Below are positions 6,533 to 54,336 of a DNA stretch of 64,000 nt, piece after piece. The stretch comes from Candidatus Magasanikiibacteriota bacterium. Its GTDB lineage: Bacteria > Patescibacteriota > Patescibacteriia > Magasanikbacterales > UBA922. Position numbers and translations under genes: made by a program. The stretch lies in assembly GCA_021648085.1 (NCBI GenBank), contig JAKITS010000001.1:682759-746758 (forward strand). The letters are read 5' to 3'. Within the stretch, counting starts at the first letter, position 1. Each line of letters opens with the position of its first letter. The notes under the pieces were generated by a model. The model saw nothing but the letters and a program-made list of their open reading frames with translations, had not been told where the DNA came from and ran no database searches.

Positions 6533-7085
6533 AATAATTTTAGGATTTACTGGTTTTATTGCTAGTGGAAAAGGAACCGCAGCAGAATATTTAAAAGAAA
6601 AATACAATGCGCCGTCTTACAGATTTTCTACAATGCTTCGTGATATTTTAGATAGGATTTATGTAGAAAAAAATAGAGACAATCTCATAAAAACTTCAGA
6701 ATTTATTAGAAGTACTTTTGGTGAAGATGTGATGGCTAAAACACTTGGAAAAGATGTGGAAAACGACTCAAGTAATACAATAGTAGTTGACGGAATTCGT
6801 AGAATGGCCGATATTGAATACCTAACAAAAATGTCTGGTTTTGTGTTAATTCATATCGATGCAAATCCAAAAATTCGCTACGAGAGATTGGTAAAAAGAT
6901 CTGAAAATACAGACGACCAATCTAAAACTTACGAAGACTTTTTAGCAGACCACGAAAGATCTACAGAAATTAGTATTCGTGAAGTTGCAAAGCAGGCTAT
7001 GGAAAAAATTGAAAACAGTGGAAATTTTGAAGAATTAAACAAGCAAATAGATAATATTATAAAAAAATATGGAGGTCAAAATTAA
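6519..7085 (+). CDS. P-loop nucleoside/nucleotide kinase (dNMP-kinase or CoaE-like); specificity unknown
   Basis: Walker A motif GFTGFIASGKGT. It overlaps both neighbours, suggesting translational coupling. It sits inside the dTMP gene cluster. Confidence 0.55.
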   Translation: MTNNKIILGFTGFIASGKGTAAEYLKEKYNAPSYRFSTMLRDILDRIYVEKNRDNLIKTSEFIRSTFGEDVMAKTLGKDVENDSSNTIVVDGIRRMADIEYLTKMSGFVLIHIDANPKIRYERLVKRSENTDDQSKTYEDFLADHERSTEISIREVAKQAMEKIENSGNFEELNKQIDNIIKKYGGQN

Positions 7086-7497
7086 AAGAGTTGACAAATC
7101 ACTTCCACTTCCCCACTATCAAACTAAAGGGTCTGTTGCTTTTGATATTTATACACGAAAAGATATTTCAATTGAACCAAAAGAAATAAAAATGGCTCCA
7201 AGCAATTTGATTATTGAGACTCCACAAAATTTCATGCTTGTAATTGCAGCACGCTCTAGTCTACAGAAAAGAAGTTTAATGCTTGCAAATAATGTAGGAA
7301 TAGTTGATCAAGATTATTGTGGAGAAAATGACGAGATAAGCACAGCACTTTATAATTTTGGAAATGAAACCGTAGAAATTAAAGCAGGCGAAAGAATTGC
7401 ACAAGGAATTTTTGTGCCAATTGTGAAAGTAAACTGGCAAGAAGTTGATAAAATGTCTAACAATAATAGAGGTGGTTTTGGTTCAACAGGAATTTAA
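7069..7497 (+). CDS. dut: dUTP diphosphatase
   Basis: dUTPase motifs (AARSSL, GIVDQDY, and RGGFGSTG at the C-terminus). Confidence 0.9.
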   Translation: MEVKIKRVDKSLPLPHYQTKGSVAFDIYTRKDISIEPKEIKMAPSNLIIETPQNFMLVIAARSSLQKRSLMLANNVGIVDQDYCGENDEISTALYNFGNETVEIKAGERIAQGIFVPIVKVNWQEVDKMSNNNRGGFGSTGI

Positions 7498-7503
7498 AAA
7501 ATT

Positions 7504-8376
7504 ATGAAACAATATTTAGATATAGTAAAAAATGTATTGGAAAATGGAGAAAAAAAGGAAAACAGAACAGGAGTGGATACTATTGCGGTTGCTGGAGCTT
7601 TTTTCCAGCACGATATGTCCAAAGGTTTTCCAATGTTGACAACAAAAAGAGTACCTATCAGACTTGTCTCTAGTGAATTGGAATTTTTTATAAAAGGATT
7701 GACAGACAAACAGTGGTTGCAAGATAGAAACAACCACATTTGGGACGAATGGGCTTACCCAAAAAAAGCACCGTACGGACATAGCGAAGAAGCAAAGAAG
7801 AAAATGCGAGAAGAAAGAGATTTGGGTGCAATTTATGGATTTCAGTGGAGAAATTTCAATGCTCCGTACGACCACCACACCAGCGATTATTCTGGAAAAG
7901 GTGTAGATCAACTTAAAAATGTAGTTGACAAACTAAAAACAAACCCACATGACCGCAGAATGATAGTGTCGGCTTGGAATCCTACAATGATAAATGAAAT
8001 GGCTCTTCCGCCTTGCCACTATGCTTTTCAAGTGACAGTGATAAACGGAAAATTAAATCTACTCTGGAATCAGCGTTCTGTGGATGTTATGCTTGGGCTT
8101 CCTTTTAATATTGCGAGTTATGCCTTACTATTACATTTGCTCGCCAAAGAATCTGGTTTTGAAGAAGGTCGTCTAATTGGGTTTTTGGCAGATACTCATA
8201 TTTATGAAAATCATATAAATGGAGCAAAAGAACAATTAACACGCGATGTAACTAAATTCCAATTACCAAAAATAGAAACAGAAAATTTTTCATCTATTTT
8301 TGACTGGCAGTATACAGATACAAAACTTTCCAACTACCAAAGTTATCCACGAATTAAATTTGATATAGCAGTTTAA
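7504..8376 (+). CDS. thyA: thymidylate synthase (ThyA type)
   Basis: Opens MKQYLDIVKNVLENG. Carries the catalytic-Cys region PPCHYAFQV and ends with the ThyA C-terminal IKFDIAV. Confidence 0.95.
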   Translation: MKQYLDIVKNVLENGEKKENRTGVDTIAVAGAFFQHDMSKGFPMLTTKRVPIRLVSSELEFFIKGLTDKQWLQDRNNHIWDEWAYPKKAPYGHSEEAKKKMREERDLGAIYGFQWRNFNAPYDHHTSDYSGKGVDQLKNVVDKLKTNPHDRRMIVSAWNPTMINEMALPPCHYAFQVTVINGKLNLLWNQRSVDVMLGLPFNIASYALLLHLLAKESGFEEGRLIGFLADTHIYENHINGAKEQLTRDVTKFQLPKIETENFSSIFDWQYTDTKLSNYQSYPRIKFDIAV

Positions 8377-8377
8377 T

Positions 8378-8848
8378 ATGATCGCATTAATGTCAGCCGT
8401 AAGTGAAAACAATTGTATAGGAGTAAGTGGTGATTTGCCGTGGAATATTCCTGGAGATATGAAATTATTCAAAAAATATACAACAGGAAATGTGGTAATA
8501 ATGGGGCGAAAAACTTGGGAATCTCTACCAGAAAAATTTCGCCCACTTCCAAACAGAAAAAATATTATAATAACTAGGCAACCAGATTATAAAGCACCAG
8601 AAGAGGTGGCGGTTTATTCTGATATCAAAAAAGCTATACAAGCTCACAAAAATGAAAAAGTTTTTATAATTGGCGGTGGCGAAATTTACAAACAGTCTAT
8701 AGATTTGGCCGATACACTTTATATCACAAAAGTTCACCGAACAATAGATGTGTGCGATACTTTTTTCCCAAAAATAGACGAGACAAAATGGAAAATAACA
8801 GAAGAAGAAAAAATGGGAGAAATTTCTTTTTTAACTTATGAAAAATAA
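8378..8848 (+). CDS. folA: dihydrofolate reductase
   Basis: MIALMSAVSENNCIGVSGDLPWNIPGDMKLFKKYT...IMGRKTWESLP. The start is coupled to thyA. Confidence 0.9.
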   Translation: MIALMSAVSENNCIGVSGDLPWNIPGDMKLFKKYTTGNVVIMGRKTWESLPEKFRPLPNRKNIIITRQPDYKAPEEVAVYSDIKKAIQAHKNEKVFIIGGGEIYKQSIDLADTLYITKVHRTIDVCDTFFPKIDETKWKITEEEKMGEISFLTYEK

Positions 8849-47124: not shown

Positions 47125-47703
47125 TTATCTACTTAAAAGTTTTAATGCTTCACGAAGTAATGCTTCGCTGTTTTTGTTTGGATCTTTAATTCGTTTCGCG
47201 GCAGCGCGCGCTTCTGCTTTGGAATACCCCATTGAAACAAGCCCATCTACCACATCAGCCAAAGCTCCATTATCAGCTTCCATTTCTCCAGCGTCTACCA
47301 ACTTCTCTATTTTACTTCTTAGCTCCACTATCATCCTCTCAGCCGTCTTCTTCCCTATTCCACTCACTTGCGTTAGATAACTTACATCTTTTCTAGCTAT
47401 TGCAGATGAAATTTCCTTTATACTTCCAAGTGTCAAAATATGCAAACCACTTTTTGGACCAACTCCAGACACAGATATTAAAAGTTCGAAAAAACCTTTT
47501 TGTTCTAAACTTTCAAATCCATACAAATCCAAAGCATTTTCTGCAACTTTCAAAAATGTGAATAATTCTACTTTATCCCCAATGTTTTTCTGCACCAAAA
47601 AAGTCGGCACAACTCTTATTTCATACCCAACCCCCTCTCCAGCCAATACCACAAAAGAAGTTTTAGTCTTCCCAATCAATTTTCCACTCAAAAATGCAAT
47701 CAT
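47125..47703 (-). CDS. ruvA: Holliday junction DNA helicase RuvA
   Basis: OB-fold N-terminus (MIAFLSGKL). Tandem HhH motifs (GVGPKSGL, GIGKKTAERM). C-terminal domain. Confidence 0.85.
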   Translation of the reverse strand: MIAFLSGKLIGKTKTSFVVLAGEGVGYEIRVVPTFLVQKNIGDKVELFTFLKVAENALDLYGFESLEQKGFFELLISVSGVGPKSGLHILTLGSIKEISSAIARKDVSYLTQVSGIGKKTAERMIVELRSKIEKLVDAGEMEADNGALADVVDGLVSMGYSKAEARAAAKRIKDPNKNSEALLREALKLLSR

Positions 47704-47809
47704 AATTTTTTTTAAGAGTTTCTATTGTAAACCCCACTATATTGTATCTTTATTCCAACTTTTGGTCAAAAATAAAAGAGCAGGGATAAACCGCCACTCT
47801 TTGTTTTTA

Positions 47810-50310: not shown

Positions 50311-50344
50311 CCGTTCTCACACTTTAGTGAGAACGGCTTTTTTA
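50311..50344. terminator. bidirectional terminator
   Basis: ccgttctcacactttagtgagaacgg followed by TTTTTT. Confidence 0.7.
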
Positions 50345-51124
50345 TTTACTTGAATGCTCCCAAATAAAACCAAAAAGCTGCTTATAAAAAGTATAGACTT
50401 CCCTATCTTCTATTATAAAAGTGACCAATTTTCCCTCTCTTAAACTCAAAATGCCGACTTTATCTTCATAAATAAGCAAAAATAAGAATAAGTCTTTAAA
50501 CCTTTCTGGCAAAAATTTTACTTTTGTAAACTCTCCTGGTTTAATTTTTTTATAAGATTTCCTTGCAAAAGGTGTATCTACAGACAATAAATCCATTTTT
50601 ATACCCTGTTTTAGACGCACTTTTGTAAATTTATTCACCAATTCAGAAAAATTCTTGTCTAATACATCTTTATTTACAATACTTAAAATCTTCTTTCTGG
50701 GCTTCAAACTATCGTCCAAAGCCTCTTTTAACCCCTTTTTACCCTCAAAAAACCTAACATTTGGCTTATCTTGCCCCAAACGATACAAAGACTGCAAATC
50801 AAACAAATTACTATTTAATATCTTCTTTTTTGCCAACACCTCTGTTTCTTCTACTTTTAGCAAGTTTTTTAAATTGTCCGGTGGTAGTGAATTATATACA
50901 GTTTTCCCAGAATCTTTACTCTTTTTCAACAAACCTTTTTCATTTAATCCATCCAACACATAATAAAGCAGAGTTCTGGAAAGATCTATGTTTTTTTGTA
51001 AAATTTTTATATTAGTGTTTGCGTTTTTGAGCAAAAATTCATAAACCATCGCTTCGTTTTTACTGAGCCCCAAGCTAACCAATGTTTTTTGGGTTGTATT
51101 TACTTTTTTATTACTTTTTGACAT
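50342..51124 (-). CDS. TrmB-like winged-HTH transcriptional regulator
   Basis: N-terminal wHTH (KNEAMVYEFLLKNANTNIKILQKNIDLSRTLLYYVLDGLNEKGLL) plus a ~150-aa C-terminal effector-type domain. Confidence 0.6.
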   Translation of the reverse strand: MSKSNKKVNTTQKTLVSLGLSKNEAMVYEFLLKNANTNIKILQKNIDLSRTLLYYVLDGLNEKGLLKKSKDSGKTVYNSLPPDNLKNLLKVEETEVLAKKKILNSNLFDLQSLYRLGQDKPNVRFFEGKKGLKEALDDSLKPRKKILSIVNKDVLDKNFSELVNKFTKVRLKQGIKMDLLSVDTPFARKSYKKIKPGEFTKVKFLPERFKDLFLFLLIYEDKVGILSLREGKLVTFIIEDREVYTFYKQLFGFIWEHSSK

Positions 51125-51179
51125 ATTTTTTATTGTTTATAGTAGTATTATAAATAATAATACCATATTTTTCTTATTT

Positions 51180-51198
51180 TGTCAAATTTAGTTTGACA
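51180..51198. promoter_or_regulatory. perfect palindrome TGTCAAA-TTTAG-TTTGACA overlapping the -35 of the regulator promoter
   Basis: Two inverted TTGACA hexamers sit 56-74 nt upstream of the start of the TrmB-like gene. Confidence 0.5.
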
Positions 51199-51780
51199 TT
51201 TTTTACTATCACAAATACTTATTTTGTCTACAAAGACTTGACAAAGTTTTATTTTTATGATATTGTTGCTCTTGTTCATAACGCAAAAGCTTGTCAAGTC
51301 GCAGCGGATCTAAGTCATTTAAGCATCCGTACATGTTTGACTTACACACAAGTAAACACGCTTTGAACATTTCAAAAAATGTTTGCAAGGATTTTATCCA
51401 AAACAAACATCAAATGTCATATTGGTGATACTTGCCCTTTTTGGGCAGTATCGTTTCAAACACCTATTGAGCTGGAGAACTTAATAAGTGTTTGAAACGA
51501 TGCTATTCAAAAAAACACCTCCCCAATTACTAATTAAACAAAAAATATGGTTTTCCCAGCAGAACTTATCTCATTATTTTAAACAAAAGAAGATAGTATA
51601 AACCTTTCTCCACTTAATTGAATCCTTGAGTTATTCAAGGATTCAACAGAGTCTAGTTTTAAACATTAGTCAAAAACAATTTTCCGCTTAATTTGTGTAA
51701 GAAATATACAAATTAAACTGGAAATGGTTTCCAAAAAGGTGTCCCTCCCTTTGAGTGATAATAAAAAAAAGGAGGTTTAA

Positions 51781-52017
51781 ATGACCAACTTAGCTCAAGC
51801 TTTTGCAGCGGCTGGCATCGTAGATGCAGAGTCAGCCCAAAAAGCTGAGCGGGCAGTGGAACGTCGCGCCGCCGTAAACACACTTTGTGTTCGGGTGAGC
51901 AAGGCTTTCCAACTCGCCAAATCGCTTCCTTCGGGAAGTGACGCCGCGAATCGGGAGTGGAAGCATTATTATACGCTACGCAACCGCCTGCCCTACCATC
52001 TCCGACAAGCCTACTAG
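51781..52017 (+). CDS. small protein (78 aa) encoded in a ~56% GC segment; could instead be, or also be, a structured RNA
   Basis: A perfect SD aaaaaaggagg lies 6 nt before the ATG. I counted 67/120 G+C in the first 120 nt. The segment contains a cuuccUUCGggaag hairpin and other stems. Confidence 0.4.
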   Translation: MTNLAQAFAAAGIVDAESAQKAERAVERRAAVNTLCVRVSKAFQLAKSLPSGSDAANREWKHYYTLRNRLPYHLRQAY

Positions 52018-52414
52018 GCAAAAAGGATATGGTTAATCGGACTCCCGCCGAGCCGATGAAAAATAAACGGGAACAAATCTTCTTGTCTAATAGAGGACAG
52101 AACAAGAAGTTGAAGTAATTTAATAGTAAAACTTCCTAAAAAGTACTATCCAGCCCATCGCCTGCTGTAAATGGTGAAAAATGTGGGAGTAAATTGCTAA
52201 AAACAATTTACTCCCTACCTTAACTAAATATTTAAATATATTTTGAATAATTAGTTAGGGTCTTTAAAAAAATATTACAAATCCTGGATTCAATTGAGTT
52301 TTTAAATAAGTTAAAAGTTTAATTGAGTTCCTTTTACAGTTTTTTTCACAAGAGGCCTCGTATGAGCGATTACGGAGGTAAAATCACCGCGTACCCACAA
52401 ATAGGAGAGAAATC

Positions 52415-53038
52415 ATGAAGACAGCGTACTCCTTTGATTCTACTATTAAAATTCCAGATTTTCTAAAAAACCCAGCTTTTTATCTGGGAAATGAATGGCT
52501 CTTATCTTTAAACAAGTCGAAGTTTACTAAAAAACAGTGGAAAAATAATGGAAACCTACTGTATGTTTTAAAAGCAGTAGGACTACTTTTACTTATTTGT
52601 AAAAGTAGAAAGGTGGAAAAGCTAGCAAAAAAATGGCTAGAACCAGAAGAAGAGATTGAAATAAAAGCTTTGATAGATTTTTTAAGATTTGCTCTAATTA
52701 TAGAGTCAGATCCTGCGGTAGCACCAAGCTTAATGTATATAAATACATTAAGCCCTGTATTAGAAGCGCAAATAGAGGTCTCCGCTATTGACAAAATTTT
52801 AGAAATACTTGATGCAAAGAATAAACATAGTTTTCCTGTTGGAGATATTGAATGGTGTATTTTTGGGCTTGATCAGTTGCGAATAGCTCAAAAAGGTAGA
52901 CACCCCACCCAAGATGATATTGATTTTGATTTCAAAATAATGAATCAATCTCAATTTAAGCGGACAATTTCCGCTATTTTCCCAGAGTATGAAAAGGCTT
53001 TGGAGGAATTCTTGGTAACACAAACGGCTTTTGTCTGA
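52415..53038 (+). CDS. hypothetical protein
   Basis: SD aggagag upstream. A possible coupled 17-codon upstream ORF ends in an ATGA overlap. Confidence 0.5.
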   Translation: MKTAYSFDSTIKIPDFLKNPAFYLGNEWLLSLNKSKFTKKQWKNNGNLLYVLKAVGLLLLICKSRKVEKLAKKWLEPEEEIEIKALIDFLRFALIIESDPAVAPSLMYINTLSPVLEAQIEVSAIDKILEILDAKNKHSFPVGDIEWCIFGLDQLRIAQKGRHPTQDDIDFDFKIMNQSQFKRTISAIFPEYEKALEEFLVTQTAFV

Positions 53039-53166
53039 TAATTAATCAGACACAAAGTCATTCCCCAGACTTTTACATTTTTTGTAAGTAAAAGTCTGGG
53101 TCTCACTTTTACACTTTTATAAAATAAGAGTAGAAAAGTGAGACTCATCACAAAAAAGGAGATAAA

Positions 53167-53307
53167 ATGAGTAAAAAAAAGAAAAAAAGAAAACTCAAAA
53201 CTGTACCACGAAATTTCTTTGTTGTTCAAATGCGAACAGAAAGAAAAAATGGTGCTCACAAAAACAAAAACACTTGTCGTGGAAAATACAGAAGCAACTC
53301 TTATTAA
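53167..53307 (+). CDS. small, highly basic 46-aa protein (not in the ORF track)
   Basis: SD aaaaaggag lies 7 nt before the ATG. Translates to MSKKKKKRKLKTVPRNFFVVQMRTERKNGAHKNKNTCRGKYRSNSY. A terminator hairpin gcaactct...agagttgc follows. Confidence 0.4.
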   Translation: MSKKKKKRKLKTVPRNFFVVQMRTERKNGAHKNKNTCRGKYRSNSY

Positions 53308-53603
53308 TTAGAGTTGCTTTTTATTTTTTTAAGTCCAAACCCTTGACAAATAACTATTTTTATGGTTTAATTAAGCCTGCTTTAGTGTGGTGCTGGAGCA
53401 GTTCGATCCTTACAAGGAGTAAATGGTAAATGAATTCAAAAATCTGTGTTGTACAACTCACACCTCCCAACAACCAAAAACCAGCAGCTAAAGGTAAAAA
53501 TACCAGAAGCTGTTGGAAACACGCTAACCAAAGGCGTGAAAGAAGAGAGGTGAAAGTGCAACTCAAAAATACCAATCTTAAAGATTGGTAAAAAGGAGAA
53601 ATA

Positions 53604-53957
53604 ATGAAGATTCTTGTAGATAATAAACCTGGTTCTTCAAAACTGGAGATAGATAGTGAAAATGATGCTCTTTTAGCCTCCATTTCTCTTGATATTACCG
53701 AAGGTATTATCAATAGTCTAAGCTCTTGGACAATTATAGAAATTAATGGGAAAGATTTTTGTGTAATTTCAATGATACGAGCAGATTTTTTTATGTTTAA
53801 TTCCAATTTGTCAATAATTCCACTAAATAAAGAAATGATTTTTTATTTTATTACTGAGTGCCAAACGGCACTCAGTGAAATAAAGGAAGGCTCAAAAGAG
53901 GAATCTTTTTGGGCAGCCAAAATTGTAAAGCTAGACAAAATTTTGTCTCATTACTAA
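53604..53957 (+). CDS. hypothetical protein
   Basis: SD aaaaaggag upstream. A terminator at 53965-53995. Confidence 0.45.
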   Translation: MKILVDNKPGSSKLEIDSENDALLASISLDITEGIINSLSSWTIIEINGKDFCVISMIRADFFMFNSNLSIIPLNKEMIFYFITECQTALSEIKEGSKEESFWAAKIVKLDKILSHY

Positions 53958-53964
53958 AACCCAA

Positions 53965-53995
53965 ATCCCCGCACAAATGTGCGGGGATTTTTTTA
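53965..53995 (+). terminator. Rho-independent terminator
   Basis: atccccgcacaaatgtgcggggat followed by TTTTTTT. Confidence 0.75.
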
Positions 53996-54074
53996 TTGGC
54001 ACTAATTATATTATAGGGTTTTCTATTTAATTACAAAACAACCTTAATTCTTAACCTCGGAGAGGTCTTTCTTC

Positions 54075-54236
54075 CACGTCATCTTGAGCGACAGTCGAAA
54101 GATCCCCGTGCAATATCACAAAATATAAATAATTATAATAAAACATAAGTCAGTTTTTTCTTTTGTTCTTTGTTAGTTCTGGTGATTCTATTTCGAGATC
54201 CGTTCGACTTCACTTCGTTCCGCTCAGGATGACGTG
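54075..54236. repeat. type-A inverted-repeat element flanked by a perfect 28-bp direct repeat (54043-54070 and 54303-54330)
   Basis: Arms cacgtcatcttgagcgacagtcgaaagatcccc ... gatccgttcgacttcacttcgttccgctcaggatgacgtg. The direct repeat is cttaattcttaacctcggagaggtcttt. Confidence 0.75.
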
Positions 54237-54336
54237 AGAGAATAGAATTAAGAAATAAGATAGAAAGAAAATTTCCTACTTAAATACGAAGTAGTCTTAG
54301 TACTTAATTCTTAACCTCGGAGAGGTCTTTTTCTGA

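Follow-up and report, generated by a model that had tools for sequence, protein, structure and literature searches.

Does a sharp rise in GC content within an AT-rich bacterial genome mark a small gene or a structured RNA? The question is raised by positions 51781-52110 of a 64,000-nucleotide (nt) stretch of DNA, hereafter the window, from a Candidatus Magasanikiibacteriota bacterium (assembly GCA_021648085.1, contig JAKITS010000001.1, positions 682,759 to 746,758 of the forward strand). Bacteria of the candidate phyla radiation (CPR), or Patescibacteria, have tiny genomes, few known regulatory RNAs and accessory genes that are mostly uncharacterised. An initial annotation, made from the letters of the window, proposed for this segment a horizontally acquired mini-gene or a structured RNA, leaning toward the latter. 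The reading favoured here, to which a probability of roughly 0.55 is given, is that the GC spike consists of two adjacent parts carried on one transcript within an accessory segment, namely the gene of a 78-residue protein (51781-52017, + strand) and, behind its stop codon, a pseudoknotted RNA element (core at 52028-52112, + strand). A peak of GC content in AT-rich DNA does not force a choice between gene and RNA; here it would be both, and each half of the initial proposal was right for a different part of the segment, only the either/or having to be given up.

A small gene within the GC-rich segment

The GC content is 55.8% over 51781-51900 (67/120 nt, exactly as counted in the initial annotation), 55.3% over 51781-52017 and 51.5% over 51781-52110, compared with 32.1% for the whole window. 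In a 240-nt sliding window the peak reaches 55.8%, the highest value of the 64 kb (mean 32.1%, standard deviation (sd) 4.7, runner-up 45.4%), and the 330 nt of 51781-52110 fold more stably than their dinucleotide shuffles on both strands, with z-scores of -3.73 on the + strand and -3.48 on the - strand. The 78-codon open reading frame (ORF) described in the annotation is present, preceded by the Shine-Dalgarno (SD) sequence AGGAGG at 51770-51775 (+ strand), 5 nt 5' of the ATG. Taken alone, the ORF is no evidence of a gene, because open frames are easy to obtain at 55% GC (the chance of one of 78 codons is, by our own arithmetic, ~4-5% per frame) and because there is also an antisense ORF of 130 codons.

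The case for a gene comes from its homologues. An exhaustive HMMER scan (1.84 billion cluster representatives; ~15 billion proteins) yielded four full-length homologues of 73-77 amino acids (aa), with E-values of 4e-8 to 6e-4 for the single sequence and 1e-25 to 1e-32 for the profile; the profile search added no further family member. The homologues align end to end, from Met-Thr through the C-terminal RLPxHL motif, the sole stretch with indels being the linker between two predicted helices. Three of them are available with their DNA sequence (loci L002, L003 and L004) and the fourth, on the P0004 contig (JGI 3300075153), as a protein only. In all four DNA copies, the window included, AGGAGG or GGAGG is found 5-9 nt upstream of an ATG-ACN start; in L004 the annotated start is placed upstream of this evident one. 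In a protein-guided codon alignment the nucleotide identity at codon positions 1, 2 and 3 is 0.52-0.61, 0.60-0.70 and 0.22-0.41, respectively, for all six pairs, and the indels consist of whole codons only, confined to the inter-helix linker. Such 3-periodic substitutions imply selection on the protein, and 51781-52017, 78 codons followed by TAG, very probably encodes one. The antisense frame, which would give a 130-aa product, was ruled out as a real gene, since it is not conserved, all antisense frames of L003 and L004 being interrupted by stops.

The gene encodes a basic orphan protein, rich in Ala and Arg, for which a two-helix hairpin is predicted with confidence (AlphaFold model, AF2, pLDDT 82; helices 16-48 and 54-68). 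It has no assignment in Pfam, PHROGs, PADLOC, NCBIfam, PDB sequences or PDB folds; a word-index protein search with it gave no homologue, exact-protein look-ups returned no record for it or for the TrmB-family protein of the window (see below), and searches of phage and plasmid DNA collections gave nothing relevant. The family is unannotated and extremely rare, with five members among ~15 billion sequences.

GC content at codon positions 1, 2 and 3 of the ORF amounts to 0.65, 0.48 and 0.53, the last of these (GC3) compared with 0.17-0.30 in host genes. The small gene lies 11-23 GC points above its flanks or genome in 4/4 loci (the window, L002, L003 and L004), and because the excess is present in all of them the high GC is a trait of the family, not merely a trace of recent transfer. 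The foreign GC3 and a presence/absence difference from a sister genome, described below, speak for the proposed horizontal acquisition. The Ala/Arg-rich composition is one part of the ORF's high GC, and its synonymous sites, chosen for hairpins in the mRNA, seem to be the other. Against shuffles that keep both the protein and the codon set, the coding sequence folds with a z of -2.95 in the window, -6.1 in L002, -7.4 in L004 and -0.55 in L003, and the mRNA of the small gene seems to be under selection for protein and fold together. The coding hairpins of L002 and L004 are near-perfect and lie at three or four homologous places.

It is worth mentioning that the coding sequences at L002 275-496 and L004 717-917 are chains of such hairpins, 6-7 sd beyond synonymous shuffles, those of L004 including GCTGAGCGCC-GTCA-GGCGCTCAGC and GCCAGCGCGT-CCAGA-ACGCGCTGGC. 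L003 is a homologue without the RNA element downstream, and without excess coding structure.

All four hairpins named in the initial annotation are present, GCATC-GTA-GATGC, CTTCC-TTCG-GGAAG, ATCGG...CCGAT and CTTCTTGT...ACAAGAAG, and as signs of a non-coding RNA they fared differently. The CTTCC-TTCG-GGAAG hairpin (51925-51938, + strand, codons 49-53) is not conserved because it is located in the indel-prone linker between the predicted helices, and it is deleted or replaced in all homologues. The GCATC/GATGC hairpin has positional counterparts in the homologues, and in the window it is barely better than synonymous shuffles. The last two, which are the hairpins H1 and H2 of the RNA element, are conserved and covary.

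In having a short ORF within an RNA that folds beyond what its codons need, the gene is like the structured small-ORF mRNAs and dual-function RNAs, such as those of the hok type, SgrS/SgrT and RNAIII/hld. It is unlike them in that its protein is neither hydrophobic nor toxin-like, no antisense partner was found, and the excess structure varies among the homologues, being missing in L003.

The RNA element behind the stop codon

The core of the element begins 10 nt past the stop codon of the ORF, with a conserved UAR-H1 unit at 16 nt. Its first sign was an identical 32-mer right after the stop codon in L002 (57% GC) and L004 (43% GC), two loci whose proteins are only ~47-50% identical despite the common 32-mer; the window has a diverged version in the same place. 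Further copies came from a pattern scan of metagenome contigs, in which the pattern demanded a 12-nt loop and gave 27 matches, ~20 of which were chance matches. There are at least nine distinct copies (the window, L002, L004, L014, which is identical to L018, two in L017, L023, L029 and L030), a lower bound, as the window, L002 and L004 have 11 nt at the scanned loop position and copies of such spacing were missed by the pattern.

All nine copies have the same layout: UA, hairpin H1 (RUCGG/CCGAY, loop of 12-13 nt), a linker GAAAAAYAAA, a pseudoknot strand of 5 nt complementary to the H1 loop, a short A-rich joint, and hairpin H2 (6-10 bp), whose loop belongs to the AAUAnnGGAyAAA or the AUAGACCrGGAAA type. 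On the + strand of the window H1 occupies 52036-52057 (AUCGG at 52036-52040, CCGAU at 52053-52057, 12-nt loop); its closing pair covaries between A-U and G-C and its other four pairs are invariant. The pseudoknot (52043-52072) pairs UCCCG of the loop (52043-52047) with CGGGA (52068-52072) across the A-rich linker GAAAAAUAAA (52058-52067). H2 (52079-52109), made of CUUCUUGU and ACAAGAAG, has a 15-nt loop of the AAUAnnGGAyAAA type, with double-sided changes in 7/9 pairs and 100% of its cells paired. Among the nine copies the pseudoknot pairing is found in the versions UCCCG/CGGGA, CCCCG/CGGGG, GCCUG/CAGGC and GCCAG/CUGGC, and it is retained in L002 and L029 despite extra hairpins of 28-46 nt within the linker.

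The pairs were counted on a hand alignment (A4) of the seven uninterrupted copies, since MAFFT and model-derived alignments misregister H2. On this alignment 99.2% of cells are paired, compared with 76.7% in shuffled controls and at most 48% with slid partners; double-sided changes affect 10/19 pairs, the mean of the shuffles being 6.1, and the covariation score is 0.624, against 0.162 shuffled and at most 0.095 slid. H1, the pseudoknot and H2 are all backed by covariation, over 7-9 sequences in a hand-made alignment. A covariance model built from the hand alignment gives the true copies 50-83 bits (E-values of 1e-9 to 5e-17) and finds a single copy in the window, with 60.6 bits (E-value 8e-12), a match whose span, 52028-52112, defines the core. 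In single-sequence minimum-free-energy folds H1 is formed in 9/9 copies and H2 in 8/9, and both stems are plain to see in the sequences themselves. The model also gave a weak match in the sister genome (L032 7871-7945), which turned out to be an unrelated hairpin. Judging from these alignments, a conserved pseudoknotted RNA element is quite likely to exist after the ORF.

The failure to recognise RNase P, tmRNA, signal recognition particle or 6S RNA, recorded in the initial annotation, agrees with the database scans, including the Rfam scan that it had proposed: Rfam 15 gives no gathering-score match in the whole window and no match that overlaps 51781-52112 or falls in an L017 copy at E<=10, the searches of L002-L004 at E<=1 and of L014, L017, L023, L029 and L030 at E<=0.1 gave chance matches only, and ARAGORN reports no tRNA and no tmRNA. 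Scans of viral contigs with motif patterns gave no true copy, and a literature search found no description of such a motif. The element is uncatalogued; its kind, a bacterial structured mRNA element with an H-type pseudoknot, is known, and what is new is its architecture, its position after a stop codon and its link to an accessory unit. A protein family with a codon-level substitution pattern and no conserved RNA structure had been named in advance as the finding that would overturn the annotation; the homologue search that it had also suggested revealed such a family, with codon-level substitutions, and a conserved RNA structure stands right behind the gene.

In 9/9 copies the element starts 7-19 nt past the stop codon of a co-directional ORF, and these ORFs are unrelated to each other, except that three of them (in the window, L002 and L004) belong to the small-protein family. 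For the ORF that precedes the element in L029, remote homology to the small protein was considered and ruled out (hhalign probability 0.3%). A signal for stop-codon readthrough or frameshifting was considered unlikely, given the spacing of 7-19 nt and downstream frames that close quickly.

Past H2, six copies carry GUUG and a covarying hairpin H3, the two L017 copies among them differing as CGAG/CUCG vs CCUG/CAGG; the loop of H3 is AAAAUCCA in several copies. Such GUUG-plus-H3 modules related to that of the window are present in L014, L017, L023 and L029. In the window this 3' extension covers 52107-52272 (+ strand) and comprises GUUG, H3 (52112-52135) and two further hairpins at 52185-52215 and 52217-52261, with 81% conservation in the sister genome. 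Intrinsic terminators are located downstream of the element in copy b of L017 and in L023, and in L030 the SD sequence of the next ORF shares bases with the 3' arm of H3. A terminator scan of 51781-52272 found none on the + strand, where H1 is followed by GAAAAA and H2 by GUUG, with no U-tract.

Several smaller observations concern the extensions. The hairpin at 52185-52215, a 12-bp structure of GGGAGTAAATTG/CAATTTACTCCC that scores as an intrinsic terminator on the minus strand only, is kept in the sister contig L032 (~4689-4657), where a G-C pair has become A-T by compensatory change (GGAAG.../...CTTCC). The extensions of the two L017 copies likewise score as terminators on the minus strand; such scores probably arise only because A-rich linkers precede hairpins on the + strand. 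L017 carries its two element copies at 7428-7650 and 8140-8345, each with an extension of ~130 nt, 712 nt apart and with a 123-aa ORF between them. Their H3 hairpins differ by compensatory changes, and behind the second copy lie a canonical terminator (8340-8365) and a promoter-like site. In the related contigs L014 (~1440-1480 and 2827-2880) and L029 (~6840-6885) several genes are preceded by a long palindrome, CTCTCTAAAAAT...ATTTTTAGAGGG, and then by another conserved hairpin; this recurring palindrome may be an operator or another RNA module.

How the element may act

That the element is a cis-regulatory or processing RNA is put forward tentatively, at somewhat less than even odds. It would act in cis, at the RNA level, as an intercistronic or 3'-untranslated module in operons, many of them divergent from a TrmB-type regulator. 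The core would most likely fold into a compact pseudoknot, its A-rich strand placed in the groove of H1, and would have a small ligand or a protein as its binding partner. Jointly with the variable 3' extension (H3 and what follows it) the core would set the continuation of the transcript, its processing or stability, or the translation of the next gene, the extension passing the effect on as termination, stability or access to the SD sequence. Action on RNA is suggested by the A-rich linker, the invariant unpaired bases, one G-U pair of the element that fits the + strand only and the strict co-orientation with the flanking genes, as well as by the geometry, in which a first loop of 1-2 nt and an A-rich third loop of 10 nt fit the classical H-type fold. 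The element may be a new riboswitch class or a self-processing RNA. At the least, an uncatalogued, covariation-backed pseudoknotted RNA is tied here to the 3' ends of variable genes, and if it does bind a ligand or a protein it would represent a new regulatory class in a major uncultivated lineage.

Several findings weigh against this reading. For a classic riboswitch the downstream genes ought not to be unrelated hypothetical proteins, as they are here, nor the next start codon to lie at a far and variable distance, ~130-400 nt. The tight spacing to the upstream stop codon, and an indel whose boundary coincides exactly with the end of H2, would fit a function in DNA or in a cassette just as well, and the sister genome has the 3' extension without the core, that is to say, the modules are separable. 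The alignment of H2 was made by hand and fitted to the structure, and is hence biased toward it. The excess of structure in the coding sequence of the window is modest, with local z-scores of -1.7 to +1.1. The protein family has only five known members and the RNA element only nine known copies. Lastly, TrmB-family regulators are found near the small gene in the window, L003 and the P0004 contig, and near the element in the window, L017 and L029, yet the idea that TrmB neighbourhoods generally carry the element had to be ruled out, no copy being present in four blind-picked loci with TrmB homologues, L036-L039.

Among known RNAs the small H-type pseudoknot aptamers of riboswitches whose 3' strand is A-rich, namely preQ1-I (RF00522), SAM-II and SAM-V, come closest, the likeness being in the size and topology of the first half as compared with the published preQ1-I structures. 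Like preQ1-I, the element has a 5-bp stem, a loop of 12-13 nt, an A-rich strand of ~10 nt, a second helix of 4-5 bp formed with the loop, and invariant unpaired nucleotides, including a C just 3' of the loop strand. It is unlike these aptamers in several respects: no Rfam model, RF00522 included, matches it even at E<=10; the sequence of its pseudoknot is different and covaries freely; a second hairpin, whose loop is conserved, is an obligatory part of it; its neighbourhood contains no queuosine or SAM genes, the downstream genes being unrelated hypotheticals; and its place is immediately behind the stop codon of an upstream ORF rather than shortly ahead of a start codon. The element resembles preQ1-I-type pseudoknots and is not a member of that family.

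Another likeness is to RNAs of processive antitermination and to intercistronic RNAs, such as HK022 put, lambda nutR after cro, and EAR in eps operons. In common with these, the element follows a small first gene divergent from a repressor-like gene, has two hairpins and a presumed cis action within an operon, and is followed in some copies by downstream terminators. It differs in that there is no similarity of sequence or model and in that a pseudoknot is foreign to put and nut.

The accessory segment and its alternative explanations

The ORF and the RNA core belong to a segment of 594 bp (51513-52106, + strand) that is missing from a sister Ca. Magasanikbacteria genome, represented in the comparison by the contigs L032, L033, L034 and L035. 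The segment comprises an AT-rich (29.5% GC) non-coding 5' part of 268 nt (51513-51780, + strand), with long hairpins at 51618-51646 and 51674-51730, after which come the ORF and, as far as the last bases of H2, the RNA core. By BLAST, 50342-51512 of the window corresponds to L032 5928-4760 and 52107-52272 to L032 4761-4595, and the flanking blocks abut in the sister contigs. The right junction reads AAG|TTGAAG and the left one CAAAA|AAACACC; the microhomology is 2 nt long (AA), and there is an imperfect repeat, CAA(A/G)AA. On this comparison 51513-52106 is in all likelihood accessory, the presence/absence difference between two genomes being compatible with insertion or deletion. The 5' part, 51513-51780, has no similarity to any other compared locus.

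The synteny anchor to the left is a divergent gene of a TrmB-family regulator (50342-51124, - strand; Pfam PF01978 at 3e-11). Its protein is 100% identical to one from a Ca. Magasanikbacteria metagenome-assembled genome and has a 78%-identical orthologue in the sister genome; a scan of genome contigs with it returned only one distant relative. The one good sigma-70-like promoter upstream, TTGACA-17-TATTGT with TG, is located at 51238-51266 (+ strand) by consensus scan only and is conserved in the sister genome. The same scan finds no sigma-70-like promoter on the + strand within 51513-52106, for which this upstream one is the nearest, and it is the likely start of a transcript with leader, ORF and RNA.

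These data permit a reading at the level of DNA, in which the element would be the 3' end of a mobile gene cassette, an attC-like folded single-stranded DNA, and the segment a cassette behind the fixed promoter by the TrmB gene. The ORF and the pseudoknot would then be a cassette of an unrecognised CPR gene-cassette system, in which promoterless accessory genes are swapped at a TrmB-side expression site by a machinery unrelated to integron integrases and possibly acting through the RNA. If the element does mark mobile cassettes, they would represent a new route of gene flux. The likeness to integron cassettes lies in the folded element always close behind the stop codon, within a few nt, of diverse co-oriented ORFs, in the two tandem ORF-plus-element units of L017, in what may be the clean gain or loss of one unit between relatives, stopping at the last bases of H2, in a common promoter upstream with none on the + strand inside the segment, and in the foreign composition of the inserted ORF, seen in its GC3; the gene content on the right side also differs between the sister genomes. 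The candidate events of gain or loss as a unit amount to one clean 594-bp indel, in two genomes and compatible with insertion or deletion alike, and one tandem pair. This explanation is nevertheless unlikely. In the window, 15 ORFs were scanned up to ~14 kb away on each side, and they include no integrase or other recombinase, transposase or reverse transcriptase; no recombinase domain, including that of an IntI-type tyrosine recombinase, was found there or in the ORFs scanned in L017 and L029, and the scans cover part of each genome. The left junction lacks the sequence of the right one save for CAA(A/G)AA, there are no GTTRRRY/RYYYAAC cores at the junctions and no R''-L''-L'-R' palindrome, and the segment includes 268 nt of extra non-coding DNA. 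A pseudoknot, an A-rich linker and strongly conserved sequence with conserved single-stranded bases typify a folded RNA, not attC.

Slightly less probable still is that the small basic protein binds to the element, the gene and the RNA behind it forming an autoregulatory or ribonucleoprotein pair. Ribosomal proteins S15 and L20, which bind pseudoknots in their own mRNAs, would be the model for this. Of the four homologue loci for which DNA is available, three (the window, L002 and L004) have the element directly behind the gene, and in these three the coding sequences are also unusually structured; the protein is Arg-rich and predicted to be helical. However, 6/9 copies are located behind unrelated ORFs in loci that encode no member of the family, the L003 gene has no element in its 180 nt of downstream sequence, and no RNA-binding domain is detectable in the small protein.

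It is very unlikely that the segment holds just an ordinary, horizontally acquired hypothetical gene with incidental hairpins or a plain terminator. The presence/absence difference from the sister genome and the foreign GC3 would agree with it, but GAAAAA follows H1 and GUUG follows H2, with no U-tract, and the sequence, helices and pseudoknot are conserved across hosts of 32-60% GC behind unrelated genes; the covariation data contradict this explanation. Hardly credible, and already largely refuted, is the idea of a non-coding structured RNA that spans all of the GC-rich stretch, with the ORF as a by-product of GC richness, since against the fold z of -3.7, the coding structure beyond synonymous shuffles, the GC-rich island in an AT-rich genome and the long antisense ORF, which shows how readily open frames come, there stand 3-periodic substitutions with third-position identity near random, a frame, start and stop kept across GC backgrounds of 49-74%, a strong SD sequence in every DNA copy, indels in multiples of three in the linker only, and L003, which keeps the protein without excess structure.

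Some further features surround the segment and its relatives. The leader at 51425-51513, common to the window and the sister genome, can form two mutually exclusive hairpins, one of GATACTTGCCC/GGGCAGTATC, flagged as terminator-like, and the other an inverted repeat with 34-nt arms (51438-51471 and 51480-51513), directly after which the 594-bp segment starts; the pair looks like an attenuator. In L004 a perfect TTGACA-17-TATAAT promoter (53-81) is followed by a structured leader of ~630 nt (85-716) before the small gene, paralleled by ~500 nt in the window and reduced to only ~75 nt in L003. On the P0004 contig the homologue of the small protein is preceded by five tandem genes of the TrmB family (~242-256 aa each).

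To the right of the common extension the gene content of the two genomes differs as well (window 52273-54336 vs L032 2137-4594): L032 has a 323-aa gene without a counterpart in the window, and a 207-aa ORF of the window is only 33% identical to part of a 311-aa gene of L032. The region by the TrmB gene is a small variable island between core genes (ruvA, gyrA and ileS), and the sister genome carries a 54-codon duplicate of the 5' end of ruvA (L032 1918-2082 vs 7952-8530; window 47561-47704), 96% identical and ~6 kb from the full gene.

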